Source: Bacteroidales bacterium
GTDB taxonomy: Bacteria; Bacteroidota; Bacteroidia; Bacteroidales; Prolixibacteraceae
Assembly: GCA_015654795.1 (NCBI GenBank)
Contig: JAATGF010000062.1
Coordinates: forward strand, 8,102-72,101
Direction of reading: 5' to 3'
Length of the DNA stretch: 64,000 nucleotides
Shown: piece after piece, positions 22,482 to 60,204 of the stretch
Layout: each line of letters begins with the position of its first letter
Numbering within the stretch: position 1 is the first letter of the stretch
Program-made: the position numbers and the translations under genes
Notes under the pieces: generated by a model
The model's input: the letters and a program-made list of their open reading frames with translations, nothing else
Database searches by the model: none
Told to the model about the DNA's origin: nothing

Positions 22482-22538
22482 ATGAGATATCACAACAGTA
22501 TATTATTGTCGGTTTATATTTTTGAGTATATTTGCACT

Positions 22539-25306: not shown

Positions 25307-25340
25307 GCTAAAATAAGTCCTAAGGGCATAGGCGTCACAG

Positions 25341-30829: not shown

Positions 30830-30859
30830 CAGGTGATCAAAATCCATAAACCGATAAAT

Positions 30860-32078: not shown

Positions 32079-32160
32079 ATAAAAAGTTCTTTTTTCTTTC
32101 AGTCGCATCAACAATATCCTAATATTGTCATCGAAAAACTACCAAACTAATATTTCACAA

Positions 32161-33855: not shown

Positions 33856-33941
33856 TGATCGATTTCAAATATATCAGGATTTGCCTTCGATCGTGGGTAC
33901 CCGGAGTGAGCATGCAATCTCAAAAAAGAGATGATCAGCCT

Positions 33942-43700: not shown

Positions 43701-43822
43701 GCACCAATGTATTTACAACCAGTAAGTTGCCTTTGGGTATGGATCCTGAATCTCCTGAAACTGTTCAAAACAGTTATCCGCTGATCTCAACCTACACCTT
43801 TGGTGTGGAAGTGAAATTTTAG
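40748..43822 (+). CDS. susC: SusC-like TonB-dependent transporter (no STN domain)
   Basis: 1024 aa with a signal peptide, a CarboxypepD_reg-like segment (VTGRVTDEANDPVPGATIVVKGTSAGTISDADGNFKI), a plug (TMSILKDAASASIYGSRAANGVILITTKRG), a beta-barrel and a terminal ..GVEVKF. Confidence 0.9.
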   Translation: MKKIILFFCLIVSFSVVFAQQKSVTGRVTDEANDPVPGATIVVKGTSAGTISDADGNFKIKIGESSNVLTISFIGFESQDVNITGKSTVDVKLRLSSIGIEEVVAVGYGVQKKVNLSGSIASVKGEALANRSTVQTSQALQGMAAGVTVTSNNGRPGKEGTTVRIRGIGTLNDNNPLVLIDGVASSLDAVDPNDIETMSILKDAASASIYGSRAANGVILITTKRGKADKVSVTYKGSVGFTTPIEIPKNATAWDYMTMYDEANANDLRNDAGVPGGFIYGPDKISTWKNATDRDEYPNSDLFKETYKKQAAETSQYLGFSLGNDKLRSNTSINYAWQDAHYAHSDYTRYGIRSNNSYTMNKYVEFGFDLSVRNTLSQDAASGQGDYGTIDQLMRLPAIYQTRYSNGVWGGNYSGTPQGMMIIEEGLAMKYEGWQETIAKISATFKPVVGMRIDFSYTPKFSTNSIKQVKKVMPLYDYKTLAVSWTPTYPATIGETREKTREDDINILLNYTKSFGKHDVAALGGFQYLTNTFNNLYAYRQGNNFQQFEEINSYDPTGMTNSGYTNEWALMSYFGRLNYAFAGKYLLEANVRYDGSSRFANGYKWGVFPSFSGAWRFSSESFMENFKWLTNGKLRASWGELGNQSGLGSNYPFALNVATDQYTVFGGVLNPGYAPVNYALTDITWESTRMIDFGIDLTLFRGKLDATFDWYKKDTRDILLTMPIPGVMGYANSPKQNAGSVENKGWDLSISHANTIGKFYYKVTGILSDVENKITNIGGLAPQISGVHVRQVGEPIDALYGYVADGLFSSFTEARAYTVAQFGKLQGGDIRYIDQLTVDSDGDGIPDAGDSKITGDDRVILGNPIPRYSFSLDLYTSYKGFDFAMFFQGVGKRDGYISGWLAYPFQNASTALVQHTDRWSEANPNPNAAYPRLSINQQSNNLQPSTFWQVSAAYLRLKNIQLGYSLPAQLFKNKSVSAVRFYANGTNVFTTSKLPLGMDPESPETVQNSYPLISTYTFGVEVKF

Positions 43823-45801: not shown

Positions 45802-48423
45802 ATGAAACGCAATTTATATCTGCTGTTCATAGCATTACTTCCGGTTGGTTTATTGTTTTCCTCCTGGAAATCCAATAATTTACCCGATGAAAAACAATCG
45901 TTGCCTGGCTCATCACTCAAACTTTCGTGGGTTAAAAACAAGGATGGCTGGAAAGTAGATAACTTGCTTGTAAAAAAAGACAATCAATGGGTTGCACTGC
46001 CCAACCCGGGTGGTGAGTATACCATTCTTTACAGTACCGAAAAACCAGACTCCTCTCCCGCTGTCCTCTATAGAACCAATAACAGTAAGATTATTTTTCC
46101 CGAACCTGTTTACAAATTTGTTGTTCCGCTTTGGAATAACGTTATTAATCCTGTACAACTGAACACAGCTGGCCAGGCAATCTTTTCCTATCCGCAGACT
46201 TTAAGCAAATTAGCAAACGGGAGCGTAAAATTCGTCTCCGAAACAAAAATATCTACACTCGAAGCAATCTGGAATATAGATGAAAATTATCCTTCGGATA
46301 TCAATGTAAGCATTACAGTAAAAGCCAAAGTTGCCGGTTACTTTTCAGTTGCCACTCCTTCATTGGTTACCGTTCCAAAAGAACAATTGACATGGGGTAT
46401 CCTTCCCGGCTATTTCCAGGGGTCCTCACTGGAAAATGATTTTGTAAAGGCTTATGCTTACGGACAAGGAATACCGGATCGTCCTGTTGTCGTCAGGGAG
46501 CGAACGGCAAGCACCTTATCGCCGGTGATCACGACAAAGAACGGCATCTCTATTGGCGTAATTCCGGAACCATGTACAGATCGCGATCCATGGCTTACCG
46601 ATAAAAGTACACATACAGACTGGTTGCTTGGATTATCCTTAATGAACAGGAAATCTGATTTGACGCCAACACTTTATCATCCAGTGCTGGGACAAAAAGG
46701 ATCCTGGTTAAAAGCAGGTGAAACGGTGAGTTTTAAATTCCGTTACTCGGTAATGCCTACCGACTGGTATCCGGTTTACAAACATGCACTATGGGACATT
46801 TATCATTTTAAGGACTTTCTGAGCTTAAAGAAAACATCACAGTCTCTCACAGACCGCATTTTTGCAATGCACCGGTATGTAATAAATGATGTATCATCGA
46901 AGTGGAGAATTGAAGAGTTTAATGGTTCAAAAATTGGCGGACAGGCTTATAATGCAGGCATCAGGGGTGCAAATGGCGATGCAATGAAAAATTCCGATTA
47001 TGGCGCCATGTGGATGATGGCAACAATTATGAACGATTCCGTTTTGAAACAGACGCGTCTGCCCTTTGCACGCAATTTTAAACTGGAACAGCAACAAACT
47101 GCGCCGGGCCTCTTTAATGGCGCTGTCGCCGGACAATACTATTTGTCAAAAAGTAAAAGGTTTACCGAGGAATGGGGTACCTATACCGAACCTATCGCAA
47201 TTACTTATTATAACCTTCTGGATATCGGGAACATTCTGTTGTTCAACCCCGGCGATTCCATTCTTCGCAGCAGGTTAACCTCAGGCGCTGAAAAACTTTT
47301 GGAATGGCAGGGAGCAGAGGGAAACTGGCAAATTGCCTACGATGAGGAAGGAAAGCCCATGTTTACAGAGCTGGAGGATCTAAGACCCACGTTTTACGGG
47401 ATGATAGTTGCATACAATATTCTGAAGGATAAAAAATACCTCGCAGCAGCCTGTAAGGGTGCCGATTGGTTGATAAAGAATTCAGTAGACAAGGGGCATT
47501 TTTTGGGTGTATGTGGAGATATTCGTTTTATACCCGATTTTGCAACGGGGCAAATCGCTCAGGCACTTCTTGATTTGTATGATCTTACCAAAAATCCAAA
47601 ATATAAGGAAGCTGCAATCAAAACGGCACGCTTTTATACAACTTCCATTTATACACATCCTATACCGTCCAGGCAGGTTAAAACAGTCAACGGAATAAAG
47701 CATGAAGACTGGGAGATCAGCCAGGTTGGACTTAGCTTCGAACACGGCGGGAACGTAGGATCGGCAAATAACGGAGGTCCTATATTACTGGCCAGCCATG
47801 CCGGATTGTTCGTCCGTATCTATGAACTCACGCACGATTCTGTTTATCTCAATATGGCAAGGGCAGCAGCATTGGGTCGGGATGCATTTGTGGATCAAAA
47901 AACCAGCGTAGCCTCCTATTACTGGAGCAAGATGAACGCTGGTCCCGGCGAATTTCCTCACCATGCATGGTGGCAGATCGGCTGGCTCACCGATTACCTG
48001 CTTTCAGAAGCGGAAATGAGATCAGCTGGTAAAATAACCTTTCCGCATGGATTTATATCTCCAAAGGTAGGCCCTCATAAAACCTATGGTTTTGCCCCGG
48101 GAAATATTTATGGCAATAAAGCGTCTTTATCGGTTCGCGAGGGTTTGCTCAAAGCAGAATCTCCTTATCTGGATTTTATGACTGCAGCTAATCCGGAGAC
48201 AAAAAACATCTACTTTATCCTTCTGAACAGTGACGATGAACTACTTAAAACAACCATCACCCTCGATTCTGATGCCCTCATAAGAGGATCCAAAATAAAG
48301 CGGTTAAGCTGGATCAATGAATCAGGCAAAACCGAATTGATTAAAGTAAATGAGGTAAATTTAAAAATTGAAATACCTCCTTTCGGGGTAAAAGTGATTG
48401 AAGCACATTATGATGTTAATTAG
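45802..48423 (+). CDS. Large secreted hypothetical protein; candidate unclassified CAZyme (N-terminal beta-rich region + C-terminal (alpha/alpha)-toroid-like region)
   Basis: 873 aa with a signal peptide (LFIALLPVGLLFSSW). I recognise no family motif. The C-terminal half has helical-repeat features seen in six-hairpin enzymes (LLEWQGAEGNWQIAYDEEGKP; GADWLIKNSVDKGHF; AQALLDLYDLTKNPKYKEAAIKTARFY). It lies immediately after susC/susD. Confidence 0.35.
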   Translation: MKRNLYLLFIALLPVGLLFSSWKSNNLPDEKQSLPGSSLKLSWVKNKDGWKVDNLLVKKDNQWVALPNPGGEYTILYSTEKPDSSPAVLYRTNNSKIIFPEPVYKFVVPLWNNVINPVQLNTAGQAIFSYPQTLSKLANGSVKFVSETKISTLEAIWNIDENYPSDINVSITVKAKVAGYFSVATPSLVTVPKEQLTWGILPGYFQGSSLENDFVKAYAYGQGIPDRPVVVRERTASTLSPVITTKNGISIGVIPEPCTDRDPWLTDKSTHTDWLLGLSLMNRKSDLTPTLYHPVLGQKGSWLKAGETVSFKFRYSVMPTDWYPVYKHALWDIYHFKDFLSLKKTSQSLTDRIFAMHRYVINDVSSKWRIEEFNGSKIGGQAYNAGIRGANGDAMKNSDYGAMWMMATIMNDSVLKQTRLPFARNFKLEQQQTAPGLFNGAVAGQYYLSKSKRFTEEWGTYTEPIAITYYNLLDIGNILLFNPGDSILRSRLTSGAEKLLEWQGAEGNWQIAYDEEGKPMFTELEDLRPTFYGMIVAYNILKDKKYLAAACKGADWLIKNSVDKGHFLGVCGDIRFIPDFATGQIAQALLDLYDLTKNPKYKEAAIKTARFYTTSIYTHPIPSRQVKTVNGIKHEDWEISQVGLSFEHGGNVGSANNGGPILLASHAGLFVRIYELTHDSVYLNMARAAALGRDAFVDQKTSVASYYWSKMNAGPGEFPHHAWWQIGWLTDYLLSEAEMRSAGKITFPHGFISPKVGPHKTYGFAPGNIYGNKASLSVREGLLKAESPYLDFMTAANPETKNIYFILLNSDDELLKTTITLDSDALIRGSKIKRLSWINESGKTELIKVNEVNLKIEIPPFGVKVIEAHYDVN

Positions 48424-48432: not shown

Positions 48433-49809
48433 ATGAAAATTCAAACCGGAAGTATAAGTTCCATAATAATAAGTTGTATTGCGATTTTAATCGGAGGTTC
48501 TTTGATGAGCTTTCAGCAAAAGGATTTGAACCACTACGTTCAATATGACGGATTTAAAAAGAGTGATCTGTTCCAGGTAAAAGTCAACGGAATAAAAGTT
48601 TTTACGGCAGAAGAATTATGTTTTGGCGACAGCATTTTCCACACCTCACAATTCTTTGTCGAAGGAGAAACCGAAATTATTGTTGAATGTGCTGTACCTG
48701 TTGAGAAATTTGAAATCAGGCCATTCAGTAAAAAAATAAGCGGCGTAATTAAAGGCAATCAACTGATCTTCAAAGTAAACAAGCCCGAAATGTTAATTAT
48801 AAAAATAAACAATCTTAAACCATTGTGCTTATTTCAGACACCTCCTGAAAAAGAGGTACCTGATCCCAAAGATCCAAATGTGATCTTTTTTGGCAAAGGA
48901 ATACATGAACCGGGGTTGTTGAGCATTAAAAGCGGACAGACCATTTATCTTGAGCAGGGGGCAATCGTCAAAGGCCGTTTTTTTGCTGAAGGGGTACATA
49001 ATGTAACCATCAAAGGTCGTGGAATAATTGATGCTCGCGGTTTCACGAATAAATCAAAAAAGATCTGCGGATTGGAATTTAAAAGTTCATCACATATAAA
49101 GGTTGAAGGAATTGGTTTACGTACCGGCGAATGGTGGCAAAGTCTCTATATACTGTGCAACGATGTTGATGTAAGATACATGAACCTCATGAGTTTCGGG
49201 GTCAATAATGACGGCATTGACATCGACGGCGTGACCAATTTCACGGCAAGCGGCTGCTTCATCGGTTGCGGCGATGATGGTTTCGGCTGGCATGCTGTCG
49301 ACGCTAAAACCAATGGTCAAATGCCTACTGAAAACTGCACCGCCAGTGATTGTGTAATTTATAATGCACATGCCGGAAATGGATTGAGGGTTGGCGCTTC
49401 AATGGAAACCCACCTTTTTAAGAATATCACCTTTAGAAATATCGATGTTGTTGAACATTCAGGTTACGGAATACGCAGTGACCACAGCGATTGGGCAAGC
49501 TGTGAAAACATTCTGTTCGAAAATTTTTTCATTGAAAAACCGGTCAATGCAATCAATATAAAGATTGAAAAGACCCGTTACTCCAACGATACCGGATATC
49601 GTGATGAACGAGGCAATATATATGGTTTAAATTTTATCAATGTTCAAACTTCCGGAGGACAGATCATTCTGAATGGATTCGATACTGAACATGCGATCAG
49701 GAATGTCAATTTCAAAAATTGCAAAGCCAGCGGAAAACCGATTGAAGCCAAAGATGTAGAAACAAATGAGTTTATCTATCATCTTAATTTCTTGAATCAG
49801 ATAAATTAA
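48433..49809 (+). CDS. Right-handed beta-helix glycosidase, GH28-like
   Basis: 458 aa. NNDGIDIDGV, GCGDDGFGWH and HAGNGLRVGAS resemble the GH28 NTDG / DD / GHG motifs. The protein is divergent. Confidence 0.6.
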   Translation: MKIQTGSISSIIISCIAILIGGSLMSFQQKDLNHYVQYDGFKKSDLFQVKVNGIKVFTAEELCFGDSIFHTSQFFVEGETEIIVECAVPVEKFEIRPFSKKISGVIKGNQLIFKVNKPEMLIIKINNLKPLCLFQTPPEKEVPDPKDPNVIFFGKGIHEPGLLSIKSGQTIYLEQGAIVKGRFFAEGVHNVTIKGRGIIDARGFTNKSKKICGLEFKSSSHIKVEGIGLRTGEWWQSLYILCNDVDVRYMNLMSFGVNNDGIDIDGVTNFTASGCFIGCGDDGFGWHAVDAKTNGQMPTENCTASDCVIYNAHAGNGLRVGASMETHLFKNITFRNIDVVEHSGYGIRSDHSDWASCENILFENFFIEKPVNAINIKIEKTRYSNDTGYRDERGNIYGLNFINVQTSGGQIILNGFDTEHAIRNVNFKNCKASGKPIEAKDVETNEFIYHLNFLNQIN

Positions 49810-49981: not shown

Positions 49982-51778
49982 ATGCGAGTGAAAAATGTTA
50001 AAATCATCTTCTTCATCCTGTTTCTTTGCGGTGTAAACGCATACCCGCTTTTCTCACAAATACTCATTGAGGCCGAGAATTTCACAAATAAAGGGGGATG
50101 GGTTGTCGATCAGCAATTTATGGACGAGATGGGATCACCCTATTTGCTGGCGCATGGCCTTGGCGTTAAAGTTGAAAATGCAGTCACTACTGTTCCCATT
50201 GAACGTGGCGGAAAATACAGGGTATGGGTTCGAACCAAAGATTGGGTCGCACCGTGGAATGCAGTTGGAGCACCGGGGAAATTTAATGTTGTAATTAATG
50301 GCACCGTTTTACAGGAGGTTTTTGGTACAAAATATGCGGAATGGACCTGGCAAAATGGTGGTATCGTCGACCTGGAAGGGACCAAAACAACGATTGAACT
50401 TCAGGATTTAACTGGTTTTGAAGGTCGGTGCGATGCGATACTGCTTTGTAAAAACCTGGATTTCAAGCCAGCGAACTCATTAAATGAGCTGAGGAAATTC
50501 AGACGTAAATTGCTTGGAACCACCCGGCCAAGGAATTGCGGCAATTATGACCTGGTTGTTGTGGGTGGAGGAATTCCGGGCATTACTTCCTCCTTAATGG
50601 CAGCCAGAAAAGGACTTAAGGTCGCTTTAATACAGGACAGACCGGTTGTTGGTGGTAATAACAGTTCAGAAACAAGGGTTTGGCTTGGAGGTGCAATCAA
50701 TGTCGCCCCTTATGTGAAATTAGGTAATATCGTAAAAGAGCTGGAACAGGAAAAAAGAGCTCATTACGGGGATGCAAATACTGGTGAACTCTATGAAGAT
50801 GATCGTAAACTTTCGTTGCTGCAAAAAGAGAAGAATATTGATCTGTACATGAATTGCAGAGCCAACGAAGTCGTTGTAAAAAAGAACCGGATCAGTAATA
50901 TTGTTGCAGAAAACATTATCACAGGTGAAAGAAATCTGATCAGCGGAACTTTGTTTGCCGATTGTACAGGCGATGGGGTGATCGGATATTTAGCCGGAGC
51001 GGAATATCAAATGAGTGATTCCATCATGGGGAAATGCAATCTGTGGAATATTTCCATAACTGCAAATGAAACAACATTTCCAAAATGTCCGTGGGCTTTG
51101 GATCTTACGCTAAAAGCGTTTCCCGGTCGCAGTGCAATACCTGGTTCCTACGGTATAAAAGGGGAGAAAGCATTGGGAGGATGGTATTGGGAAAGTGGGT
51201 TTTACCGCGATCCGTTCAGGTATGACGAATGGGTCAGGGACTGGAATTTCAGAGCGATGTATGGCGCCTGGGATGCGCTCAAAAACGTCGATCATGCCTA
51301 TCCGAAACATCAACTAAACTGGTCGGCCTATATTTCAGGGAAAAGGGAATCGCGAAGATTAATCGGAGACTTAATACTTAACGATCAGCATTTACTGAAC
51401 GCTACTGTATTTGAAGACGGGTTAATGGCCACGGGCTGGGATATGGATGTACATATCCCTCATAAAGATTTAAAAAATTATTATCCCGAAGACCCCTTTA
51501 TTTCGTATGATATTCATACAAAATACAAGATGCCGTTCCTATTGCCATACCGGATCCTTTACTCAAAAAACATCAATAACTTATTCATGGCAGGAAGAGA
51601 TGTAAGCGTAACCCATCAGGCTTTAGGCTCAGTCAGGGTGATGCGTACCGGCGGATTAATGGGTGAAGTTGTAGGTATTGCAGCTTATTTGTGCAAAAAG
51701 AACAACGCTTCTCCCAGAGATATTTATACCCAATATCTTTCGGAACTTAAAGATCAGATATTAAACCAGCTACCTTAA
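49982..51778 (+). CDS. PF12831-type FAD-dependent oxidoreductase-like protein with signal peptide and N-terminal CBM-like beta-sandwich
   Basis: 598 aa. The signal is MRVKNVKIIFFILFLCGVNAYPLFSQ. The N-domain is ILIEAENFTNKGGWVVDQQFMDEMGSPYLLAHGLG... Further motifs are DLVVVGGGIPGITSS..IQDRPVVGGNNSSE, ISGKRESRRLIGD and LPYRILYSKNINNLFMAGRDVSVTHQALGSVRVMRT. Confidence 0.75.
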   Translation: MRVKNVKIIFFILFLCGVNAYPLFSQILIEAENFTNKGGWVVDQQFMDEMGSPYLLAHGLGVKVENAVTTVPIERGGKYRVWVRTKDWVAPWNAVGAPGKFNVVINGTVLQEVFGTKYAEWTWQNGGIVDLEGTKTTIELQDLTGFEGRCDAILLCKNLDFKPANSLNELRKFRRKLLGTTRPRNCGNYDLVVVGGGIPGITSSLMAARKGLKVALIQDRPVVGGNNSSETRVWLGGAINVAPYVKLGNIVKELEQEKRAHYGDANTGELYEDDRKLSLLQKEKNIDLYMNCRANEVVVKKNRISNIVAENIITGERNLISGTLFADCTGDGVIGYLAGAEYQMSDSIMGKCNLWNISITANETTFPKCPWALDLTLKAFPGRSAIPGSYGIKGEKALGGWYWESGFYRDPFRYDEWVRDWNFRAMYGAWDALKNVDHAYPKHQLNWSAYISGKRESRRLIGDLILNDQHLLNATVFEDGLMATGWDMDVHIPHKDLKNYYPEDPFISYDIHTKYKMPFLLPYRILYSKNINNLFMAGRDVSVTHQALGSVRVMRTGGLMGEVVGIAAYLCKKNNASPRDIYTQYLSELKDQILNQLP

Positions 51779-51797
51779 AACTTTAATAACAACCCTG

Positions 51798-53603
51798 ATG
51801 GAGGCAAAATCTTTTTTTAACTTAAAGAATTACGGATTCTTGTTTTTACTCTGCCTGAGTCTCAACCTTTATGGTCAGATTTTAGTAGAGTGCGAAAATT
51901 TCGACAGCAAGGGTGGCTGGGTAGTCGATCAGCAGTTTATGGATCAGATGGGTTCACCCTATTTAATGGCTCACGGTTTGGGCACACCTGTTAAAGATGC
52001 GCATACCACGGTATCATTTCCGGAAGCCGGAACCTATAAAGTATTTGTAAGAACTTACAACTGGACTTCGCCCTGGTATAAAGGAAAAGGACCGGGGCAA
52101 TTCCAACTGAAGATCAATGGAAAAATACTGCCTGCGGTTTTGGGAATTGAAGGGAACCAATGGATGTGGCAGGATGCAGGAATAGTTAAACTTCGAGAAG
52201 CCAGAACGGAAATCGTTTTAAAAGATCTGACCGGGTTCAACGGTCGCTGTGATGCTGTTCTTTTTACAAAAGATAAGTCATTCGTCCCGCCATCAGGAGA
52301 AAAAGAACTATCCGAATTTCGAAAAAAACTCCTTCGGATCGACTCTCCACTCGATGGAGGAAGGTATGACCTTGTCGTTGTAGGAGCAGGTGCTGCGGGT
52401 ATCTGTACTGCAATCTCGGCGTCGCGATTAGGTATTAAAGTTGCACTGATCAACGACCGGCCGGTTTTAGGCGGAAATAACAGCTCAGAAGTAAGGGTCG
52501 GACTTTCGGGTGATATCGATAAAAATCTTTATCCCAATATTGGGAATGTCTTGAAAGAATTCAATCCGGAACGGCCATCAAACGCCGGACCGGCCGAAGC
52601 CTTTATGGATGACCGGAAAATGTCACTCATCCTCGCTGAAAAAAATATCACCCTTTTTCTGAACATGCATGTATTTAAAACTGAAATGAATTCCAATAAA
52701 ATCAGATCAGTTATCGCCAAAAACATCGAAACCGGCAAGGAAATGATTTTCAGAGGAAGCTTGTTTGCCGATTGTACCGGTGATGCAACTGTTGGTTACC
52801 TGGCGGGTGCTGACTACAGGATGGGAAGGGAAAGCGCTTATGAAGCATTCGAATCGCTCGCACCGCTTTTTTCAGATCAGCGAACATTGGGTACCTCAAA
52901 CCTGTGGTCATTCGAAACTTCTGCTGATGCTTCTCGTTTCCCTGTTCTTGATTGGGCCTGCCAGTTCAGCAAACAGTACAATATCGATGAAATTAAACCG
53001 GACTGGAAATGGGAAGGGGGATTCTCAAAAAATACGATTACAGATGCCGAAAATATCAGGGATCAAAACCTGCGCGCAATTTTCGGTAACTGGGCTTATC
53101 TCAAGAATAACAATCCAAAATATGCCAACCGGAAACTGACCTGGGTAGCATTTATTGGCGGCAAAAGGGAATCGCGCCGGTTACTTGGAGATGTTATCCT
53201 TAATCAAAATGATATTCAGAACCAGGTCAGGTATAACGACGCCAGTTTCACTACAACCTGGTCGCTCGACCTTCATTTCCCTGATCCGGAAAACAGCAAA
53301 TATTTTCCGGGTGAGGAGTTTTACAGCTATTGCAATCAACCAAGGATTTTTCCTTATCATGTGCCTTATCGATGTCTTTATTCGCGTAATATTGAAAACC
53401 TGTTTATGGCAGGAAGAAATATCAGCGTAACCCATGTGGCTTATGGTACAATCAGGGTGCAACGTACCACCGCAATGATGGGCGAGGTCATTGGCATGGC
53501 AGCATCCATTTGCAAAAAACACCAAGCCTCTCCCCGATCGGTATATCTGGAGTACCTTGGGGAATTAAAAGAACTCATGAAAACCGGAATCGCTGCAAAA
53601 TAA
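51798..53603 (+). CDS. PF12831-type FAD-dependent oxidoreductase-like protein (tandem paralog of 49982..51778)
   Basis: 601 aa with the same architecture: ILVECENFDSKGGWVVDQQFMDQMGSPYLMAHGLG.., DLVVVGAGAAGICTA..INDRPVLGGNNSSE, IGGKRESRRLLGD and VPYRCLYSRNIENLFMAGRNISVTHVAYGTIRVQRT. Its stop overlaps the next ATG (TAATG at 53601-53605). Confidence 0.75.
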   Translation: MEAKSFFNLKNYGFLFLLCLSLNLYGQILVECENFDSKGGWVVDQQFMDQMGSPYLMAHGLGTPVKDAHTTVSFPEAGTYKVFVRTYNWTSPWYKGKGPGQFQLKINGKILPAVLGIEGNQWMWQDAGIVKLREARTEIVLKDLTGFNGRCDAVLFTKDKSFVPPSGEKELSEFRKKLLRIDSPLDGGRYDLVVVGAGAAGICTAISASRLGIKVALINDRPVLGGNNSSEVRVGLSGDIDKNLYPNIGNVLKEFNPERPSNAGPAEAFMDDRKMSLILAEKNITLFLNMHVFKTEMNSNKIRSVIAKNIETGKEMIFRGSLFADCTGDATVGYLAGADYRMGRESAYEAFESLAPLFSDQRTLGTSNLWSFETSADASRFPVLDWACQFSKQYNIDEIKPDWKWEGGFSKNTITDAENIRDQNLRAIFGNWAYLKNNNPKYANRKLTWVAFIGGKRESRRLLGDVILNQNDIQNQVRYNDASFTTTWSLDLHFPDPENSKYFPGEEFYSYCNQPRIFPYHVPYRCLYSRNIENLFMAGRNISVTHVAYGTIRVQRTTAMMGEVIGMAASICKKHQASPRSVYLEYLGELKELMKTGIAAK

Positions 53604-54697
53604 TGATGAAACAAATAGTGATAATTTTGATATTAAGAATATTAGGGATTGCAACTGGATTCAATTTGTCTGCACAAACAAAGATTCTGCCGGGCGAACT
53701 CAACCTTCAGCCGATGATTCAGCCTATCCCAATGACTGCAAGGTTCATCAATGACACCTCCTTTATTTGGTGCGGTACTTTGATTAAATCACATATCGAT
53801 CAGAAATATCATCTTTATTATTCACGCTGGCCACGAAAACTGGGTATGAATGCATGGGTAACCCACTCTGAGGTCGCACATGCAGTTTCTGATTCCCCCT
53901 TTGGTCCGTTTGAATTTAAAAGTGTTGCATTGCCGGTTCGCGGAAAGGAATACTGGGACGGGTTGGTCACACATAATCCAACGGTTCATTTCTACAAGGG
54001 TAGGTATTACCTCTACTACACAGGCAATACAGGTGATGGGATTGCAATGAGAAACCAACTCAACTGGAGTCACAGGAATAACCAGCGTATTGGCGTTGCA
54101 GTTGCCGATGATCCCAACGGCCCCTGGAAACGGTTTGATCGCCCTGTTATCGATGTGTCTTCTGATCCCGAAGCCCGTGATGCACAAATGATGGCGAACC
54201 CTTCTGTCACTCAAATGCCCGATGGCAGATACCTCATGGTTTACAAAGCAGTCGCAAAGAAAAAACCACAACCATTCGGCGGACCAGTAGTTCACTTAAC
54301 CGCCATTGCCAATCAACCCGAAGGGCCGTTTGTGAAACTGAATAAACCCATTTTTACGGCAGAGAATGTTGATTTTCCGGCGGAAGACCCATTTGTCTGG
54401 TATCAGGATAATTGCTATTATGCGATTGTTAAAGATATGAAAGGTGCTTTCACAAATGCCGGTCGTAGCCTGGTCCTTTTTTATTCAACAGATGGTCTGA
54501 ATTGGAAACTGGGCAAACATCCGCTGGTTTCTGCGCTGAGCATCAAATGGGAAAATGGTACCACTCAAAAATTGGAGGCACTTGAAAGGCCCCAACTCTT
54601 TTTTGAAAACGGAAAATTAGTTGCTTTGCTGTGTGCTGTAAATGAAACTACTGAACATTCTTACAATGTGCAGATACCACTGAAAAAGAAATACTGA
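53603..54697 (+). CDS. Five-bladed beta-propeller glycoside-hydrolase-like protein (clan GH-F, GH43/GH117-like), paralog A
   Basis: ORF 53510..54697, with a realistic start at 53603 (MMKQIVIILILRILGIATGFNLSAQ signal). Blade-like repeats are KYHLYYSRWP, THNPTVHFYKGRYYLYYTG, NQRIGVAVADDPNGPWKRF, MANPSVTQMPDGRYLMVYK, AEDPFVWYQDNCYYAIVKD and LERPQLFFENGKLVALL. Confidence 0.6.
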   Translation: MMKQIVIILILRILGIATGFNLSAQTKILPGELNLQPMIQPIPMTARFINDTSFIWCGTLIKSHIDQKYHLYYSRWPRKLGMNAWVTHSEVAHAVSDSPFGPFEFKSVALPVRGKEYWDGLVTHNPTVHFYKGRYYLYYTGNTGDGIAMRNQLNWSHRNNQRIGVAVADDPNGPWKRFDRPVIDVSSDPEARDAQMMANPSVTQMPDGRYLMVYKAVAKKKPQPFGGPVVHLTAIANQPEGPFVKLNKPIFTAENVDFPAEDPFVWYQDNCYYAIVKDMKGAFTNAGRSLVLFYSTDGLNWKLGKHPLVSALSIKWENGTTQKLEALERPQLFFENGKLVALLCAVNETTEHSYNVQIPLKKKY

Positions 54698-54824
54698 AAA
54701 AATATACAGTTAAAATATACATTGTCATTCTTTTTTGCGGAACATGAAGATTGAAAAGTCCTTGTATAGTAACGACACCAAACCTTTGGATTAAAAACAG
54801 AAACATTTATAATTTAAAATTAAG

Positions 54825-56630
54825 ATGAGGCATATTAACGCATTGATATTTAACCTTATGCTGGCAGTCCTGTTTATGACTGCCAACGCTCAAAACACAC
54901 AAGATGGAAAATCCCCGATTGCTGATGCAGTGCCGTTCAAATCTTCAACACAAAACAATAATCAATTGGATGCTCCGGAAACCAATCCTCAGGAAAAAAC
55001 AGAAGTCTATGATATAGTTGTTTACGGAGGAACGTGTGGCGGTGTCATGGCAGCGGTTCAGGCAGCGCGGATGGGGAAAACCGTGGCCTTGATCGAGCCG
55101 GGTATACACCTCGGCGGCCTGACCAGCGGTGGGCTCGGCTGGGTTGATGTGGGAAACCCGGAAACGATCGGAGGACTGGCCCGCGAGTATTTCCACAGGG
55201 TTTGGAAGCATTACCAGGACGACTCCGCCTGGAAATGGGAGAAAAAGCACGAAATGCCGGGGCAGCATGCGCCGCTTGCACCCGAAGACGGGACCATGTG
55301 GATCGTCGAACCTTCCATTGCGGAACGGCTGTTCGACCAAATGGTAACTGAAGCAAATGTAACGGTCGTACGCAACGAGCGGCTAAATCGAGGGAGCGGC
55401 GTGATAAAAGAAGGACAGAAAATCGTCAGCATTGCCATGGAATCCGGCACCGTTTTTCAGGCCAGGATGTTTATCGACGCAACTTACGAAGGCGATCTGA
55501 TGGCCGCATCGGGTGTGTCGTATATCGTCGGACGCGAACCCAACAGCCGGTACAACGAAACGATCAACGGGATCGGTCCCATGCCGCCGCCCAACCATTT
55601 GCCGGACATCGACCCCTATCAAATCAAGGGAAATCCGAAGAGTGGACTTTTACCCCGCATTCATCCCGACTGGGGCGGAAAGATTGGCGATGGAGACCGT
55701 GGTTTACAGGCCTACAATTACCGGATGTGCCTGACACAGATTCCTGACAACAGGGTGCCCGTGGAAAAGCCTGCTGATTACGATGAAAAACAATACGAGT
55801 TACTTTTTCGGTTTATTGAAGCCGGGGGAATGGATGGTGAATTTTTCAACGCCTCGCTGGGGGGCGGCTTTATCAAACCCTCCCTTATACCGAATGGTAA
55901 GACTGATACGAATAACAACGGTTATATCTCCACGGATTATATCGGCATGAGCTGGGACTACCCGGAGGCCGATTATGTCACGCGCGCCCGTATTGCCAAA
56001 GAGCATGAGCAGTGGCAGCGGGGTCTGATCTGGACCTTGCAGCACCATCCGCGCATCCCCGAAGAAGTTCGCCAGCGCTATGCACCGTGGGGGCTGGCAA
56101 AGGACGAGTTTACCGACAACAGACACTGGCCTTTTCAACTCTACATTCGTGAAGCCCGCCGCATGATCGCCGACTACATGGTTACAGAACACACTGCGCT
56201 TGGCAAAGAGTTTGCACCGGATCCGGTAGGAATAGGTTCCTATCATATGGACTCTCATGCCATCAAATACTTTGTTTCGCCGGCAGGCTTCCTGACGAGA
56301 GATGGCGGTATGTTCGTCCATATACCCGCACCATATGGAATCAGCTATCGCGCTATCATTCCCAAACGCAGTGAATGCAAGAACCTGTTGGTACCGATCT
56401 GCATCTCCGCCACCCATGCAGCATATGGATCCATACGAATGGAGCCGGTTTTCATGGTGTTGGGGCAGTCTGCCGCCACAGCAGCGAGCCTGGCGATTGA
56501 CAGTAACATCGCATTGCAGGATGTGCCCTACAGCGCGCTGAAAGAATGTCTGTTGGCGGACAGCCAGATCGTCGATTTGCCACCGAAAGGTTTCTCGCAA
56601 AACAGCCTGTATTCAACTGGAAAATTGTGA
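54825..56630 (+). CDS. PF12831-type FAD-dependent oxidoreductase-like protein, divergent, with a strongly GC-rich mature region
   Basis: 601 aa with the signal MRHINALIFNLMLAVLFMTANAQ followed by an N/Q-rich linker. Motifs are YDIVVYGGTCGGVMAAVQAARMGKTVALIE..GGLTSGGLGW and ..ISATHAAYGSIRMEPVFMVLGQSAATAASLA. The many antisense and alternate-frame ORFs across 54945-56600 reflect the high GC. Confidence 0.75.
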   Translation: MRHINALIFNLMLAVLFMTANAQNTQDGKSPIADAVPFKSSTQNNNQLDAPETNPQEKTEVYDIVVYGGTCGGVMAAVQAARMGKTVALIEPGIHLGGLTSGGLGWVDVGNPETIGGLAREYFHRVWKHYQDDSAWKWEKKHEMPGQHAPLAPEDGTMWIVEPSIAERLFDQMVTEANVTVVRNERLNRGSGVIKEGQKIVSIAMESGTVFQARMFIDATYEGDLMAASGVSYIVGREPNSRYNETINGIGPMPPPNHLPDIDPYQIKGNPKSGLLPRIHPDWGGKIGDGDRGLQAYNYRMCLTQIPDNRVPVEKPADYDEKQYELLFRFIEAGGMDGEFFNASLGGGFIKPSLIPNGKTDTNNNGYISTDYIGMSWDYPEADYVTRARIAKEHEQWQRGLIWTLQHHPRIPEEVRQRYAPWGLAKDEFTDNRHWPFQLYIREARRMIADYMVTEHTALGKEFAPDPVGIGSYHMDSHAIKYFVSPAGFLTRDGGMFVHIPAPYGISYRAIIPKRSECKNLLVPICISATHAAYGSIRMEPVFMVLGQSAATAASLAIDSNIALQDVPYSALKECLLADSQIVDLPPKGFSQNSLYSTGKL

Positions 56631-56871
56631 AACGATTTATAAAAACATAGGAACCTTACCAGTTAAATACCAACCGAAATGAGTGACTTGAGCAAAACAA
56701 ATTCAGTAAAAGTTCAGGACGTGTTCGATGACTATAAGAAATGGAAAATGATTATGGGGTTTTGCCCTGGCCGACAAAACCGGAAAGGAGCAACATTGAA
56801 AAGAATTAGTTCAAATCAATTTCTAATAAAGGAAGAGATAATTTAAAGAACCAATATACCTTGAAAATATT

Positions 56872-58092
56872 ATGAAATTAACTGCATTCATTCTTATTTT
56901 TGTTCTGAACGCCTTACTGACAGAGCCACAGGTGATTCTATCAGAAGTTGGGTTTGTTTTAAATATCCCTGATCTTTCAAAAAATCAGGATATTCTGGAG
57001 GTTGAGAGCAGAATTTCATCATTTCAGGGTATTTATATAAATGACCATTCGGTAATAAATTCCGGAAAACAGAACTCGGGCAGTCTCGACTTCACCAAAC
57101 TTATCCCTGAATATCCGGAAAAACATATTTTTTCGATGCCTGGGTACAATGTATGGTGCAATGGCGTGGTGAAAGGCGACGACGGGAAATATCACATGTA
57201 CTTTTCGCGTTGGCCCAAGTCGCGTGGGTTTGAAGCCTGGGTGACCCATTCGGAAATTGCCCATGCGGTTTCCGATAACCTGTTTGGAGCATATCATTTC
57301 TCCGATGTTTGTTTACCTGCCCGTGGAGATGAATACTGGGACGGAGCCATGACTCACAATCCACATGTGATAAGGTACAATGGGAAATATTATCTTTATT
57401 ATACAGGTGATCACGGTAGCGGATATTGGAAAACCACCTCTGATACAATAATGCCTAAAATAACTCATCCGGAGTGGTGGGTAAACCGTAACAACCAACG
57501 AATAGGCGTGGCGGTGGCCGACAGCCCTTATGGTCCCTGGAAACGATTTAACAAACCATTAATCGACATTACCCTGGGACGACGGATAACCGCAGTTCCA
57601 ACAGTATTCCAGCGGCCCGATGGCAATTTCTCACTGACGTACAAATTTGTGACAGAAAAAGAAGGCTACAAAGGAGGTGCAGTAAAGCACTATATCTCGC
57701 TTTCCGATTCACCGCTCGGACCGTTCAAAGACTACGACAAGCCATTCATCACTTCGCCTAAATCCGATTTTCCAATTGACGATCATGTGGAATGGTTTCA
57801 GGATGGAAGATATTACTGCATTGCCAAAGATCACGGCGACATGATTACCGAACACGGCATTACCCTTTTGTTGTTCGGGTCAGAGAATGGACTCGACTGG
57901 ACGCTGTCGCCAAACTCGCTGGTGCATAAATTCAACATTACTTTTAAAGATGGCGAACACATGGATTTCGACCGGCTCGAAATGCCCAAGGTTTATCTTG
58001 AAAATGGGAAGGTTGTTGCCTTGTTTTTGGCTGCAAAACCAAAAGGAAAGGAAGATTCATTTTCAGTGGTGTTGCCGGTAATTTACAAATGA
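56872..58092 (+). CDS. Five-bladed beta-propeller glycoside-hydrolase-like protein (GH43/GH117-like), paralog B
   Basis: 406 aa, alignable to paralog A throughout (KYHMYFSRWPKSRGFEAWVTHSEIAHAVSDNLFG; THNPHVIRYNGKYYLYYTG; NQRIGVAVADSPYGPWKRFNKPLID; IDDHVEWFQDGRYYCIAKD; LEMPKVYLENGKVVALF). Confidence 0.6.
   Translation: MKLTAFILIFVLNALLTEPQVILSEVGFVLNIPDLSKNQDILEVESRISSFQGIYINDHSVINSGKQNSGSLDFTKLIPEYPEKHIFSMPGYNVWCNGVVKGDDGKYHMYFSRWPKSRGFEAWVTHSEIAHAVSDNLFGAYHFSDVCLPARGDEYWDGAMTHNPHVIRYNGKYYLYYTGDHGSGYWKTTSDTIMPKITHPEWWVNRNNQRIGVAVADSPYGPWKRFNKPLIDITLGRRITAVPTVFQRPDGNFSLTYKFVTEKEGYKGGAVKHYISLSDSPLGPFKDYDKPFITSPKSDFPIDDHVEWFQDGRYYCIAKDHGDMITEHGITLLLFGSENGLDWTLSPNSLVHKFNITFKDGEHMDFDRLEMPKVYLENGKVVALFLAAKPKGKEDSFSVVLPVIYK
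56950..57057 (+). repeat. N-terminal module copy 1 (GFVLNIPDLSKNQDILEVESRISSFQGIYINDHSVI), shared with 58331..58438
   Basis: 30 of 36 aa are identical to the copy in the next gene, and the DNA is visibly collinear. The flanking sequences are not alignable. Confidence 0.85.
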
Positions 58093-58237: not shown

Positions 58238-60204
58238 ATGAATCGTTTCGGGCCATACTATTTTCTATATGTACTTATCCTGGTATTACATTCAAACCTT
58301 TTATTTTCACAGGTAGAAGTAAGCGCGACCGGGTTTGTTTTAAATATCCCCAAACTTCCAAAAAATCAGGATATCCTGGAGGTTGGGAACAGGATTTCTT
58401 CATATCCGGGTATTTACATTAATGATCATTCTGTCATTTATAATCCAACAGAGAAGAAATGGCATATGTATGGAATTGTAAATGGCGAGAAAAGCTTTAT
58501 CCATCTGACCGCTGATTCATTGACTCAACAAAACTGGGTTGAGCATAAACATTACGTCGATTATGGAGCTCAGATCTGGGCACCCCACATTATTTACGAA
58601 AAAGGTAAATATTTCATGTTTTACACGAAAATTGGTGTTCCCCGTCAGATTGTTTGCGTTGAGTCAACCGATCTTTGGTACTGGTCTGAACCTGAACTTA
58701 TTTTGGCTTCACGCACCCGGTCAGGTAACGATGCGAAGAATAAGGATCCAATGATTATCAAGGAAAAGGATCAATGGATCATGTATGTCAGTATGATGAA
58801 AGATTCAGCAAACTGGGTGGTGGCTTACAGCACAAGCCGGGATCTGAAAAGATGGTCGAAACCACTAATTTGTTTCGATGAGAATACTTCCATGCCATCT
58901 GTTGAATCTCCTTTTGTAGTGAAAAGAAGCGATTATTATTATATCTTTATCTCAGCCAGACCCTGGCCATATGGTTATCTGGAGGTTTTTCGAAGCTCTT
59001 CACCCTATGCGTGGAAAGTAACCGACAAAGTGAAATGGATGGACTGGCATGCGCCCGAAATCATCCGCGATTTGGATGGAAAGTGGTATATCACTTTATG
59101 CGGTTATGAACCTGAAAGAAACGGATTCTCCGTTTTTCAGTTGTATTGGAATGATTATCTTGAAAATGCTGAAACATCTGTTCCTGTGCCAGCTAATAAT
59201 TTGAATCAGGTAAAAAAATCAGCTACAAAACAGACTGGTTTTATTCCTGCACAAACCTGGCTGGATACCAATGGAAATGCCATCAATGCACACGGAGGTG
59301 GGGTCATTTTTTTCAAGGGAATTTATTACTGGTACGGGGAACACAAACTGAGACCACATTTGCTGACGGCGGCATCCATTGTTATTCTTCCGTTGACCTG
59401 GTCAACTGGAAGGATCAAGGAATAGTGTTGAGTGTAAATTATGAGGATGCGAAAAGCGATCTGGCATATGGATGTATTCTGGAAAGACCAAAGGTCGTTT
59501 ACAATGAAAAGAATAAGGAATTTGTAGTATACTTTAAACTCTATCTCAAAGGGGTGGGTTACGAAACCAGTTATGTGGGAGTGGCAGTAGCCCGAAATCC
59601 CGAAGGCCCTTTCATGTATTATCACAAGTTTCATGGAGGAGGATCTCCTAATGGTTCAGGAGATTTCTCGATGTTTAAAGATGAGAGTGGCGACTTATAC
59701 CATTTGACAGTAAGAAAGCCGGACAAAACCTTTGTCATCGGCAAAATGGATGAAGACTATTATTATCCGAAAGGAGAATACCTGGCTTGCGATGGCATAG
59801 CACCGCATACGGAAGCCCCGGTGGTGATAAAAAAAGATGGTAAATATCATTTGTTGGGCTCAGGTTCAAGCGGATGGAAACCCAATGCCGCCCGCAGTTA
59901 TACGACGGATCGTTTATCCGGGAAGTGGACTTACCATGGAAATCCATGTAAAGGGATAAACAGTTTTGATCACATCGGAGCGGATAGTACATTTGGCGGA
60001 CAATCAACTTGCATTTTACAGGTACAGGGTATAAAAAATGCCTATATTGCAATGTTTGATATCTGGAAACCTGAAAATCCTGTTAATGGAAGATATATCT
60101 GGCTGCCAATAGAATTTATTAGTGGCAAAATGTCTGTTTCATGGTATGACAGTTGGAGTCCTGATGATTTTAAACCAGGAAGACATTTGCCAGATAAGAA
60201 TTAA
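58238..60204 (+). pseudogene. Two-propeller fusion (N-terminal GH43/GH32-clan-like propeller + C-terminal GH43 domain resembling exo-beta-1,3-galactanase-type GH43) with an apparent 1-nt frameshift
   Basis: ORF 58238..59425 has QIWAPHIIYEKGKYFMFYT, NKDPMIIKEKDQWIMYVS and VESPFVVKRSDYYYIFIS, then the start of a second domain, WLDTNGNAINAHGGGVIFFKGIYYWYGEHK. This continues in ORF 59425..60204, whose frame is open upstream from about 59341 (TETTFADGGIHCYSSVDLVNWKDQGIVLSVNYED..HTEAPVVIKKDGKYHLLGSGSSGW..). The frame switch lies within about 59340-59365, near an A-run. Confidence 0.65.
58331..58438 (+). repeat. N-terminal module copy 2 (GFVLNIPKLPKNQDILEVGNRISSYPGIYINDHSVI)
   Basis: See 56950..57057. 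It occupies the same position just after the signal peptide, but is attached to a different propeller family. Confidence 0.85.

Follow-up and report, generated by a model that had tools for sequence, protein, structure and literature searches.

PF12831-type flavoproteins linked to clan GH-F-like propellers in a polysaccharide-utilization locus of a Prolixibacteraceae bacterium

Introduction

The window analyzed here is a 64,000-nucleotide stretch of contig JAATGF010000062.1 (positions 8,102 to 72,101; assembly GCA_015654795.1) from a Bacteroidales bacterium of the family Prolixibacteraceae. A run of co-directional genes on its + strand, extending from 28.9 to 61.7 kb and headed by a divergent LacI-type regulator gene, is the enzyme half of a polysaccharide-utilization locus (PUL), in which adjacent genes for SusC and SusD are surrounded by co-directional genes for carbohydrate-active enzymes (CAZymes) of the glycoside hydrolase (GH) type, namely GH97, GH78, GH16-like, GH28-like, and GH43-like proteins. 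Encoded among them are four flavoproteins of the Pfam family PF12831 (FAD_oxidored; FAD, flavin adenine dinucleotide), here termed F1 to F4, and the propeller-type glycosidase candidates P1 to P4. The association between these two kinds of protein, which the original prediction made from the sequence of this stretch took to be a repeated functional unit, is the subject of this article.

Accessory redox enzymes and "oxidoreductase-like" glycosidases are already known kinds of participants in glycan catabolism. What appears to be new, as far as we have found in the literature searched, is the coupling of a clan GH-F propeller with a flavoprotein of the PF12831 family, together with a cytoplasmic paralogue linked to a symporter. 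A full-text literature search found no paper characterizing the PF12831-type family in glycan degradation. A recent screen of more than 400 PUL proteins established four new CAZy families, none of which consists of flavoproteins (bioRxiv 10.64898/2026.05.19.726164), and FAD proteins are not mentioned in an earlier study (Helbert et al., 2019; PMC6442616).

Arrangement and Paralogy of the Flavoprotein and Propeller Genes

The flavoprotein F1, a cytoplasmic protein of 758 aa, is encoded at 36780-39056. The other three lie further downstream in a compact series with two of the propellers: F2 (49982-51778) and F3 (51798-53603), exported proteins with an N-terminal domain resembling a carbohydrate-binding module (CBM; ~160 aa in F2); P1 (53603-54697), an exported five-bladed propeller glycosidase candidate of clan GH-F-like character; F4 (54825-56630), an exported flavoprotein of another subfamily that is devoid of the CBM-like domain; and P2 (56872-58092), a paralogue of P1 with a longer N-terminal leader. 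All six open reading frames (ORFs) were found on the + strand with the coordinates originally predicted for them, and the NCBI gene calls for the source contig (90,116 bp) give identical products for F1 (758 aa), F3 (601 aa), F4 (601 aa), and P1 (364 aa). F2 and F3 are separated by 19 nt. F3 ends in TAA (53601-53603), the last base of which is also the first base of the P1 start codon (ATG, 53603-53605), so that the TAATG at 53601-53605 to which attention had been drawn is indeed present in the sequence; judging by this overlap, F3 and P1 are translationally coupled. Long antisense ORFs inside F4 (55800-56600, - strand, 266 aa) and P1 (53822-54295, - strand, 157 aa) are presumably spurious.

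Pairwise BLASTP comparison gave 46% identity over 585 aa for F2 and F3 (E = 0), 37% for F1 and F3 (E = 2e-68), and 43% for P1 and P2 (E = 1e-95), in agreement with the prediction that the two propellers are paralogous; F4 is more distant, being ~22-30% identical to the other flavoproteins and ~24% to F2/F3. By these alignments, the paralogy of both the flavoproteins and the propellers within the window is far beyond chance.

Family Membership and Conserved Motifs of the Flavoproteins

Assignment of the four ORFs to PF12831, as originally proposed, is borne out by full-length Pfam matches that far exceed the gathering score of 27 bits (F1, 316.7; F2, 203.7; F3, 223.6; F4, 365.0 bits), F4 being the top match of the four. 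The beta-alpha-beta fingerprint of the family, GxGxxG followed by an acidic residue or GG after strand 2, is present: F1 to F3 have the dinucleotide motifs GGGLAG, GGGIPG, and GAGAAG, then DRPVxGGN, and F4 has the variant YGGTCGG, then LIEPGIHLGG. The dinucleotide-binding strings quoted for the four proteins occur exactly as given. A regular-expression search located DRPV.GGN.SSE and GKRESRR in F1, F2, and F3, the three proteins said to share them. The long C-terminal block attributed to the same three is exact in F2 and F3, but F1 has only a close variant of it, NLFIAGRLISASHVAFGSTRV. The statement that F4 keeps nothing but the terminal block proved too narrow, because F4 also has RE(A)RR, YxMDxH, and DxTxxGD in common with the other flavoproteins.

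Conservation of these motifs extends well beyond the window. In 32 aligned F3-type sequences, the GxGxxG glycines, RPxxGGxxSSE after strand 2, and the C-terminal AG..SV.H.A....RV are invariant, as is the C-terminal segment "AGR..S.TH.A.G..R". RE[SA]RR is present in 120/120 F3-like, 107/114 F4-like, and 87/108 F1-like proteins, and [WYF]x[ILMV]DxH in 119/120, 104/114, and 101/108, respectively. That two motifs are conserved over three subfamilies suggests one shared active site, a catalytic apparatus common to proteins of the F1, F3, and F4 types.

The family is large, with at least 8000 clusters at 90% identity for F3 as query and likewise for F4; F1 retrieved 4532 clusters at 50% identity with E <= 1e-10, and 953 with E <= 1e-30. 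Full-length F1 relatives among the 150 listed are mostly ~700-800 aa long, with alignments that start no later than about residue 20 in either query or match; F1 itself begins ~20 residues ahead of its GxGxxG. Database names for these proteins are "FAD-dependent oxidoreductase", "hypothetical protein", in one case "pyridine nucleotide-disulfide oxidoreductase", and occasionally "xanthan lyase". The last of these was held to be wrong in the original prediction, and it is unsupported because F1-F4 contain no Lyase_8 or other lyase domain, so that identity with xanthan lyase of polysaccharide lyase family PL8 is rejected. The likeness is confined to the shared database name, which some F4-type proteins (e.g., P0257) bear in NCBI; in two studies of xanthan loci, the xanthan lyase is a PL8 protein and is listed apart from the FAD-dependent oxidoreductase gene (bioRxiv 10.64898/2026.04.20.719765; PMC12772297).

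Fold and Domain Composition of the Flavoproteins

AlphaFold2 models built on homologue alignments were obtained for F1 (predicted local distance difference test score, pLDDT, 92.6; predicted template-modeling score, pTM, 0.93) and F3 (pLDDT 84.1, pTM 0.85) and compared by Foldseek with PDB entries to April 2026. The only similarity to emerge was the generic two-domain FAD fold (E ~1e-10, probability 1.0), with template-modeling (TM) scores of 0.2-0.3 and 10-14% identity. The neighbors include FrdA/SdhA, flavocytochrome c3, APS reductase, MnmG, and a geranylgeranyl-reductase-like protein, and the F3 model superposes on FrdA, flavocytochrome c3, and MnmG with TM ~0.27. Fumarate reductase, flavocytochrome c3, and MnmG (GidA) have in common with the window proteins a similar C-terminal flavin-contact segment, "AG(R/E)..S.(T/H)..A.G". 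They differ in that F1 and F3 possess neither a heme domain nor an Fe-S partner, in that the capping region and beta-sandwich domains are unrelated, and in genomic context, which for F1-F4 is glycan degradation and not respiration or tRNA modification.

Searches against resources of characterized proteins were similarly unproductive. NCBIfam contains no model for the flavoproteins, the only matches being ~40-residue dinucleotide-fold hits far under cutoff, and PDB sequence searches with F3 and F4 likewise returned only ~40-residue dinucleotide-fold matches. Hidden Markov model (HMM) and structure comparisons, which might have placed the ORFs in a characterized enzyme family, gave only PF12831 and the generic FAD fold. 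The earlier view that no biochemical role has been defined for these proteins therefore stands for NCBIfam, PDB sequences, Foldseek against the PDB, and the literature search; judged by sequence and predicted structure, the flavoproteins are without a characterized close relative in these resources.

Several specific identities were considered and rejected. Membership of the fumarate reductase/succinate dehydrogenase class is not indicated, given that a full-length FAD_binding_2 match taking in the capping domain with its catalytic His/Arg residues is lacking and the Foldseek TM is 0.2-0.3: FAD_binding_2 is confined to the first ~45 residues of F1-F3 (25-26 bits) and scores 16.4 bits in F4 against a cutoff of 20.4. 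No match to the GMC family, to which glycoside oxidases belong, was obtained in F1-F4 at E <= 0.01. NAD+-dependent glycosidases of the GH4/GH109 type are discounted because Pfam detects neither an NAD(P)-binding Rossmann nor a Gfo/Idh/MocA domain in F1-F4, whose fold is of the FAD GR2 type. A role like that of UDP-galactopyranose mutase, which weak PDB matches and reports of galactofuranosidases in GH117 brought into consideration, is unsupported, the likeness being limited to the Rossmann motif.

The structural neighbors nonetheless lend themselves to one reading in which the flavoproteins act as fumarate-reductase-like ene-reductases or dehydrogenases on uronates, with arginines holding the carboxylate. 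They would either reduce the C4=C5 bond of the unsaturated uronate ends that a lyase leaves behind or act as dehydrogenases on a saturated uronate. FrdA, SdhA, and flavocytochrome c3 are the top Foldseek matches, the invariant motifs GKRESRR, PYR, and AGR are arginine-rich, a GH88 gene occurs in a neighboring PUL, and an 873-aa protein encoded near F2, with its weak six-hairpin/heparinase-like signals, is a possible lyase. We consider this reading very unlikely. The structural matches reach a TM of only 0.22-0.30 at 10-14% identity, the FAD_binding_2 similarity goes no further than the N-terminal segment, and Pfam recognizes no polysaccharide lyase in the locus. A reductase in the periplasm would moreover have no electron supply, and unsaturated uronates are already handled by GH88/GH105.

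Outside the flavin-binding core, the proteins carry additional domains. The N-terminal domain of F3 has a Foldseek match to the CBM35 structure 3zm8 and a weak Pfam match to Golvesin_C (E = 0.004), the block GGW..DQQFMD.MGSPYL.AHGLG is present in both F2 and F3, and a syntenic locus encodes a GH2 with a clear Golvesin_C domain, to which the F2/F3 N-domain is marginally similar by BLAST (E = 0.04). The description of F2 and F3 as tandem paralogues with a CBM-like N-domain is accordingly well founded. F1 instead has an all-beta C-terminal extension of ~320 aa (beta-strands at model residues ~455-758); a PDB sequence search with the 325-residue C-terminal part of F1 found no homologue. Among relatives, P0046 (F3 type) carries F5/8-type-C domains, and F4-type proteins are fused to GH16/SKN1 (P0299, 941 aa) or Golvesin_C (among P0320-P0348).

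The Propellers

P1 and P2 exceed the gathering cutoff of the Pfam GH43 family (PF04616; 32.2 bits) with 61.1 and 37.9 bits, although the best-matching stretches span only positions 69-109 and 47-114 of the 288-position profile (~50 residues in P1). Their best sequence matches in the PDB are GH117 enzymes (5ta7, 4ak5, 3p2n, 3r4y). For P1 the top matches (5ta7/4ak5) have E = 6e-11 with the single sequence and 9e-17 with a profile, and consist of blade-sized repeats of ~60-150 residues each; for P2, E = 3e-9. The label GH43/GH117-like given in the original prediction is therefore fair, although alignments to single blades do not establish family membership. Their identity to characterized GH117 enzymes is also too low for specificity to be transferred, and GH117 is itself polyspecific, comprising anhydro-L-galactosidases, a beta-D-galactofuranosidase, and alpha-L-fucosidases (bioRxiv 10.64898/2026.05.19.726164; PMC6442616), so that its specificity could not be carried over to P1 and P2 in any case. 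P1 and P2 probably fit best into a separate family of clan GH-F-like character, with GH117 and GH43 as distant relatives. The P1 family comprises 2115 clusters, and its alignment contains seven invariant acidic residues (D66, E90, D119, D207, D262, D278, and E328).

Syntenic loci pair the P1-type propeller with GH16, GH2, and sulfatases, as do agar and porphyran loci. The P1 family differs from the GH117 agar enzymes in being common in Acidobacteriota, Spirosoma, and Chitinophaga, which we take to be soil or freshwater groups where agar would not be expected. One locus of a Verrucomicrobiota metagenome-assembled genome (MAG; L068:8156-10993) encodes a 945-aa GH2 (N, Ig-like, and TIM-barrel domains) fused to a P1-type propeller, which implies that both activities are directed at the same substrate.

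Downstream of P2 lie P3 (58238-59425), a different GH43-like propeller (Pfam GH43 E = 7e-13), and P4 (59425-60204), the C-terminal 259 aa of a GH43-like gene whose N-terminus is separated from it by a frameshift. The last ~60 residues of the P3 ORF (including IPAQTWLDTNGNAINAHGGGVIFFKGIYYWYGEHK) correspond, minus the signal peptide, to the N-terminus of a P4-type GH43, and the remainder of P4 continues in another frame from ~59,350. Intact homologues of P4 in four loci (L006, L009, L012, L021) are single genes whose products have a signal peptide followed by "WxDxNGxPINAHGGGVIYFxGxYYWYGEHK". The P3/P4 arrangement would thus represent either a two-propeller fusion broken by a frameshift (a pseudogene) or a sequencing error. 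P2 and P3 also have a nearly identical N-terminal leader of ~40 residues (GFVLNIP.L.KNQDILEV..RISS..GIYINDHSVI; regions 56872-57000 and 58238-58450) on otherwise different propellers, which suggests that this part of the genes was recently recombined or duplicated.

Conservation of the Flavoprotein-Propeller Linkage

The propeller alignment was scanned against one genome per GTDB species, yielding 563 relatives, and the best 80 loci, with up to 10 kb on each side, were searched with the window proteins by tblastn; 43 of the 80 have full 10-kb flanks. A gene of the F1-F3 type was found in 39/80 loci, and in 26/43 of those with full flanks (raw counts). Every such gene (47/47) is co-directional with the propeller. 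In 17/80 loci the distance is 400 bp or less, and F2/F3-type genes directly abut the propeller in 11/16 cases. Linked loci are distributed over five phyla: Bacteroidota (31/52), Acidobacteriota (4/11), Planctomycetota (2/2), Verrucomicrobiota (1/8), and Calditrichota (1/1).

A second association involves F1 and a sodium:solute symporter (SSF), an inner-membrane importer that in the window is encoded at 32125-33855 (+; Pfam SSF, E = 2e-41). Of the 15 loci in which the sequence ahead of the F1-type gene is long enough, 10 have an SSF gene immediately 5' of that gene. Two conserved units can therefore be recognized across phyla, F2/F3-type with P1-type and SSF with F1-type. The main argument for linkage is strict co-directionality together with immediate adjacency in distant phyla. 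The adjacency of flavoprotein and propeller on which the original prediction depended is thus kept in related genomes. The finding is real, is no artifact, and had not been explained before, and the inferred functional unit of flavoprotein and propeller is supported by comparative genomics.

Host and gene content of the loci are varied. The propeller family is found widely among Acidobacteriota, Spirosoma, and Chitinophaga, in isolates as well as MAGs, and its hosts also include Flavivirga and Larkinella. The module is present in the named strains Maribellus maritimus 5E3 (L028, L030), Marinoscillum furvescens DSM 4134 (L053), Flavivirga algicola Y03 (L069), Spirosoma spitsbergense DSM 19989 (L049), Larkinella bovis KACC 14040 (L064), and Novipirellula herctigrandis CA13 (L066). 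MAGs bearing the names Tannerella, Candidatus Azobacteroides, and Dysgonomonadaceae encode homologues of the F3 type, and in one Bacteroides MAG (L042) the F3-type homologue abuts the propeller. More distant F3 homologues in Dysgonomonas and Candidatus Azobacteroides are surrounded by genes of the GH3, GH16, GH78, and GH130/GH43-like kinds and by one for a hybrid two-component regulator. Syntenic loci contain GH16, GH2, sulfatases, and GH29, and a GH16-like gene stands directly 5' of the propeller in six Acidobacteriota/Verrucomicrobiota loci (L043, L059, L062, L071, L078, L079).

Export and Cofactor Loading

The N-termini of F2, F3, F4, P1, and P2 resemble signal peptides without a twin arginine (judged by eye), and F1 has no signal peptide. 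The claim that the exported flavoproteins have Sec-type signals holds by eye for F2, F3, and F4 themselves but not for the close relatives of F4. Six F4 orthologues of 71-83% identity (P0245, P0252, P0254, P0259, P0265, P0266) carry the twin-arginine translocation (Tat) motif NRRNFILKTG, in a leader reading MDxLNRRNFILKTG, and the export route thus differs within the F4 orthologous group. A Tat signal implies that proteins of the F4 type are exported already folded and loaded with their cofactor, and these signals, together with the conserved motifs, predict that F1-F4 bind FAD. Loading of the cofactor after Sec export has a precedent in flavocytochrome c3 (FccA) of Shewanella, which is Sec-exported and receives its FAD in the periplasm.

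Other Genes of the Locus and Its Surroundings

The candidate LacI-family regulator (27461-28483, - strand; Pfam LacI and Peripla_BP), whose role is assigned from position only, matches CytR, RbsR, and other LacI-family equivalogs in NCBIfam, all below cutoff. The co-directional run that follows on the + strand begins with a GH97 (28889-30829), a family of alpha-galactosidases and alpha-glucosidases, identified by its three Pfam domains (N, catalytic, and C; E = 1e-58). Five other loci (L002, L005, L007, L027, L030) likewise have a GH97 gene flanking the propeller. A Sde182 nucleoside-hydrolase-like protein (30833-31645; PF07632, E = 1.5e-43) precedes the symporter, which is succeeded by a GH78 alpha-L-rhamnosidase with five Pfam rhamnosidase domains (33852-36680), to which NCBIfam rhamnosidase models match at E = 1.5e-146 but under their cutoff scores. 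After F1 come a distant GH16-like protein (39100-40425; Pfam GH16 E = 1e-7; PDB GH16 6xqf E = 4e-5), the SusC-like TonB-dependent transporter (40748-43822; Pfam CarbopepD_reg_2, Plug, and TonB barrel), and the SusD-like glycan-binding lipoprotein (43856-45553; SusD_RagB, E = 3e-50).

Between SusD and F2 are two further + strand genes. The first encodes the 873-aa exported protein (45802-48423), in which only sub-threshold Pfam signals of six-hairpin character (GH88, GH127, and C5-epimerase/heparinase-like) are found, and for which sequence searches gave no NCBIfam and no PDB match. Its homologues recur with F3, P1, and SSF in six loci (L004, L006, L009, L023, L049, L064) and in L006 and L009, the closest relatives, stand directly 5' of F3, making this protein a second uncharacterized candidate enzyme of the module. 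The other is a distant GH28-like protein of pectate-lyase fold (48433-49809) with a weak Pfam GH28 match and a match to the NCBIfam alpha-D-galacturonidase BT4155 model (E = 8e-12) that is far under cutoff. The run ends with a GDSL/SGNH-like esterase candidate (60242-61672, +; Lipase_GDSL_2, under cutoff), homologues of which are present in L012, L018, L021, and L046. A terminator-like hairpin at 61807-61830 follows this gene, in a promoter/terminator scan whose overall counts equal shuffled expectation.

The opposite end of the window (14-7330) carries conjugative-transposon genes, namely TraM, DUF4138 (TraN-like), a TraG/VirD4-type coupling protein, DUF3945/Toprim, and a MobA/VirD2 relaxase. 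Downstream of these is a separate PUL (9663-20916) encoding an extracytoplasmic function (ECF) sigma factor, a FecR anti-sigma factor, a SusC with an STN domain, SusD, GH88, GH28, and a DUF2961 protein that presumably has a GH172-type fold; from its composition, the target may be pectin-like or carry unsaturated uronates. In the interval between this PUL and that of the flavoproteins, a RecG-C/PadR-like ORF (21614-22189, - strand) lies just upstream of a stretch (22482-26219) containing an AbiEi antitoxin-like regulator and an ArdC anti-restriction/zincin protein. AbiEi and ArdC are typical mobile-element genes, so that the flavoprotein PUL may be horizontally mobile. The conjugative-transposon genes at 14-7330 suggest that the two PULs may belong to an integrative conjugative element as cargo or may adjoin one. 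No island boundary emerged from the base composition of the window or from a search for tRNA genes.

Electron Acceptors and a Possible Net Oxidation

Both the fold class and the Pfam family are those of redox flavoenzymes, and one reading of them is that F1-F4 are net oxidoreductases. The exported members would oxidize a hydroxyl of the sugar, leaving a ketone or an aldehyde, or would strip off by oxidation a substituent such as an O-methyl ether, a lactyl ether, or a pyruvate ketal, with electrons passing to O2 or an unlinked acceptor and the product residue then becoming cleavable by the propeller or other GHs. F1 would do likewise to an imported monomer in the cytoplasm, much as anhydro-L-galactose (AHG) dehydrogenase does in agar catabolism. 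The position of this cytoplasmic paralogue next to an importer fits such a scheme, as in agar and carrageenan catabolism a released unusual sugar is oxidized after uptake. The syntenic GH16, GH2, sulfatases, and GH29 are typical of decorated algal or microbial glycans, and many hosts belong to aerobic genera (Spirosoma, Chitinophaga, Flavivirga, and Larkinella). Two-step oxidative cleavage has precedents in the FAD-dependent, GMC-type glucoside 3-dehydrogenase or C-glycoside 3-oxidase acting with a lyase, and in the 3-keto-glycoside pathway of Bacteroides. These systems likewise place an oxidoreductase and a bond-breaking enzyme in one operon, and the oxidation labilizes the glycosidic bond, which was the logic of the original prediction. 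They differ in that Pfam finds neither a GMC domain nor a xylose-isomerase-like lyase in the present locus, where the partner is instead a clan GH-F propeller candidate.

A parallel is also provided by actinobacterial xanthan-utilization loci, which conserve an uncharacterized "FAD-dependent oxidoreductase" (XutN/PAI8) beside an ABC transporter, with a proposed part in the assimilation of unusual sugars (bioRxiv 10.64898/2026.04.20.719765; PMC12772297). This pairing resembles that of symporter and F1, and may add to the case for net oxidation.

Net oxidation is, however, a doubtful explanation on balance. No cytochrome, ferredoxin, or other redox-partner gene was found among the Pfam-scanned proteins of 27-62 kb, and no electron-acceptor or partner gene in the locus, and the exported flavoproteins have no additional redox domain and no heme or FMN (flavin mononucleotide) relay domain by Pfam. 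Homologues are also present in the MAGs of Tannerella, Candidatus Azobacteroides, and Bacteroides, anaerobic lineages in which an oxidase could not function. Moreover, the many copies and the fusions to CBMs look more like depolymerizing enzymes than like a single tailoring step.

A Proposed Redox-Neutral Model for the Module

That the flavoproteins and propellers form a functionally linked, glycan-active module is, in our estimation, well supported (probability roughly 0.85). The best explanation of the sequence evidence is that the PF12831-type proteins of this locus are genuine FAD-binding carbohydrate-active enzymes that would act on the same glycan as an exo-glycosidase related to GH117/GH43. 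CBM-like domains, fusions to GH16 and to CBM32, and the Tat signals on F4 orthologues all point to glycan-active flavoproteins, and the size of the family, with four copies in one locus, appears CAZyme-like. Recurrence of the same pairing in five phyla probably marks an undescribed step in complex-carbohydrate breakdown.

In the proposed pathway, oligosaccharides would enter through SusC/D and be trimmed in the periplasm by the CBM-bearing F2/F3 together with P1, while F4, P2, and P3/P4 would act on variants of the glycan; a small product would then be imported by the SSF symporter and processed by cytoplasmic F1. The flavin may act on a residue resistant to removal by ordinary hydrolases, at the C-H beside its glycosidic or ether oxygen, through a cycle of transient oxidation, elimination/hydration, and re-reduction that would be redox-neutral overall, and the flavoprotein would either cleave the linkage itself or expose a residue for hydrolysis by the propeller. 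The analogy is with GH4, GH109, and related Gfo/Idh/MocA glycosidases, which are NAD+-dependent, are annotated as oxidoreductases, and have their cofactor re-reduced in each cycle with no external acceptor; enzymes of the GH4/GH109 type are found among the GHs of PULs with exported and cytoplasmic paralogues, those of GH109 type being typically Tat-exported. The resemblance is one of catalytic logic, acceptor-free cofactor recycling being the behavior proposed for F1-F4, which have a FAD GR2-type fold with no relationship to these enzymes in sequence or structure and, in F2, F3, and F4, Sec-type signals.

A soluble periplasmic flavoprotein that has neither an electron wire nor O2 could sustain no net redox turnover, and the family apparently thrives in anaerobes; for these reasons, FAD-assisted cleavage or activation of a bond without net redox change is favored over a simple oxidase, tentatively and at somewhat less than even odds. 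The argument draws both on what was observed, the missing redox-partner genes and relay domains and the occurrence of homologues in MAGs of named lineages, and on lineage physiology, the Tannerella, Candidatus Azobacteroides, Dysgonomonadaceae, and Bacteroides hosts being taken here as anaerobic lineages. A broader version, in which the PF12831 proteins of PULs constitute a large unrecognized class of CAZymes that use FAD, redox-neutrally overall, to break glycosidic, ether, or ketal bonds beyond the reach of hydrolases, working alongside an exo-glycosidase related to GH117 and having a symporter-coupled cytoplasmic paralogue, seems unlikely.

A number of points weigh against the module and the redox-neutral chemistry proposed for it. 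To our knowledge, no FAD-dependent redox-neutral glycosidase has been described, and the mechanism is drawn by analogy, there being no characterized homologue. The best structural neighbors (fumarate reductase, succinate dehydrogenase, and APS reductase) are true net redox enzymes, and the role of the invariant arginines could be no more than to hold a carboxylate substrate, as in fumarate reductase. Tat signals occur in 0/120 F3-like proteins, and the exported proteins might hold no FAD. With regard to linkage, 17/43 propeller loci with full flanks (~40%) have no flavoprotein gene within 10 kb, so that the propeller has no strict need of a flavoprotein, and an F4-type gene is near the propeller in 3/80 loci, so that the F4-P2 pair is not established as a repeat of the F3-P1 unit. 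The notion of a repeated unit consequently stands for the recurring F2/F3-type and P1-type pair and does not extend to flavoprotein and propeller pairs in general. The accompanying GH78, GH97, GH16-like, GH28-like, and GH43-like proteins suggest a heteroglycan containing rhamnose and galactose as the putative substrate.

Some of these observations would also suit flavoproteins that serve as a scaffold with no catalysis, as glycan-binding or structural accessories, or that merely reside together with propellers as members of two abundant PUL families. Sec export of F3-type proteins makes cofactor loading uncertain, and 17/43 propeller loci with full flanks have no flavoprotein gene. Such an explanation is nevertheless highly improbable: the FAD-binding and putative active-site motifs are near-invariant over three subfamilies, some F4 orthologues carry Tat signals, flavoprotein and propeller genes of five phyla invariably point the same way and are often direct neighbors, and F3 and P1 are predicted to be translationally coupled in the window.

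Significance

The PF12831 family of "FAD-dependent oxidoreductase/xanthan lyase" proteins is very large and concentrated in glycan-degrading Bacteroidota, Planctomycetota, Verrucomicrobiota, and Acidobacteriota, and no assigned reaction, solved structure, or curated name was found for these proteins in the resources searched. The locus described here offers handles on the family in the coupled F3-P1 pair, the symporter-F1 pair that is conserved across phyla, and the named strains with the module. Assignment of a function would also correct a widespread misannotation and, whatever the chemistry proves to be, would fill a gap in models for the turnover of recalcitrant algal, plant, and microbial glycans. 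If the redox-neutral reading is true, these proteins would form a class of FAD-dependent CAZymes that is the flavin counterpart of the NAD+-dependent GH4/GH109 mechanism.

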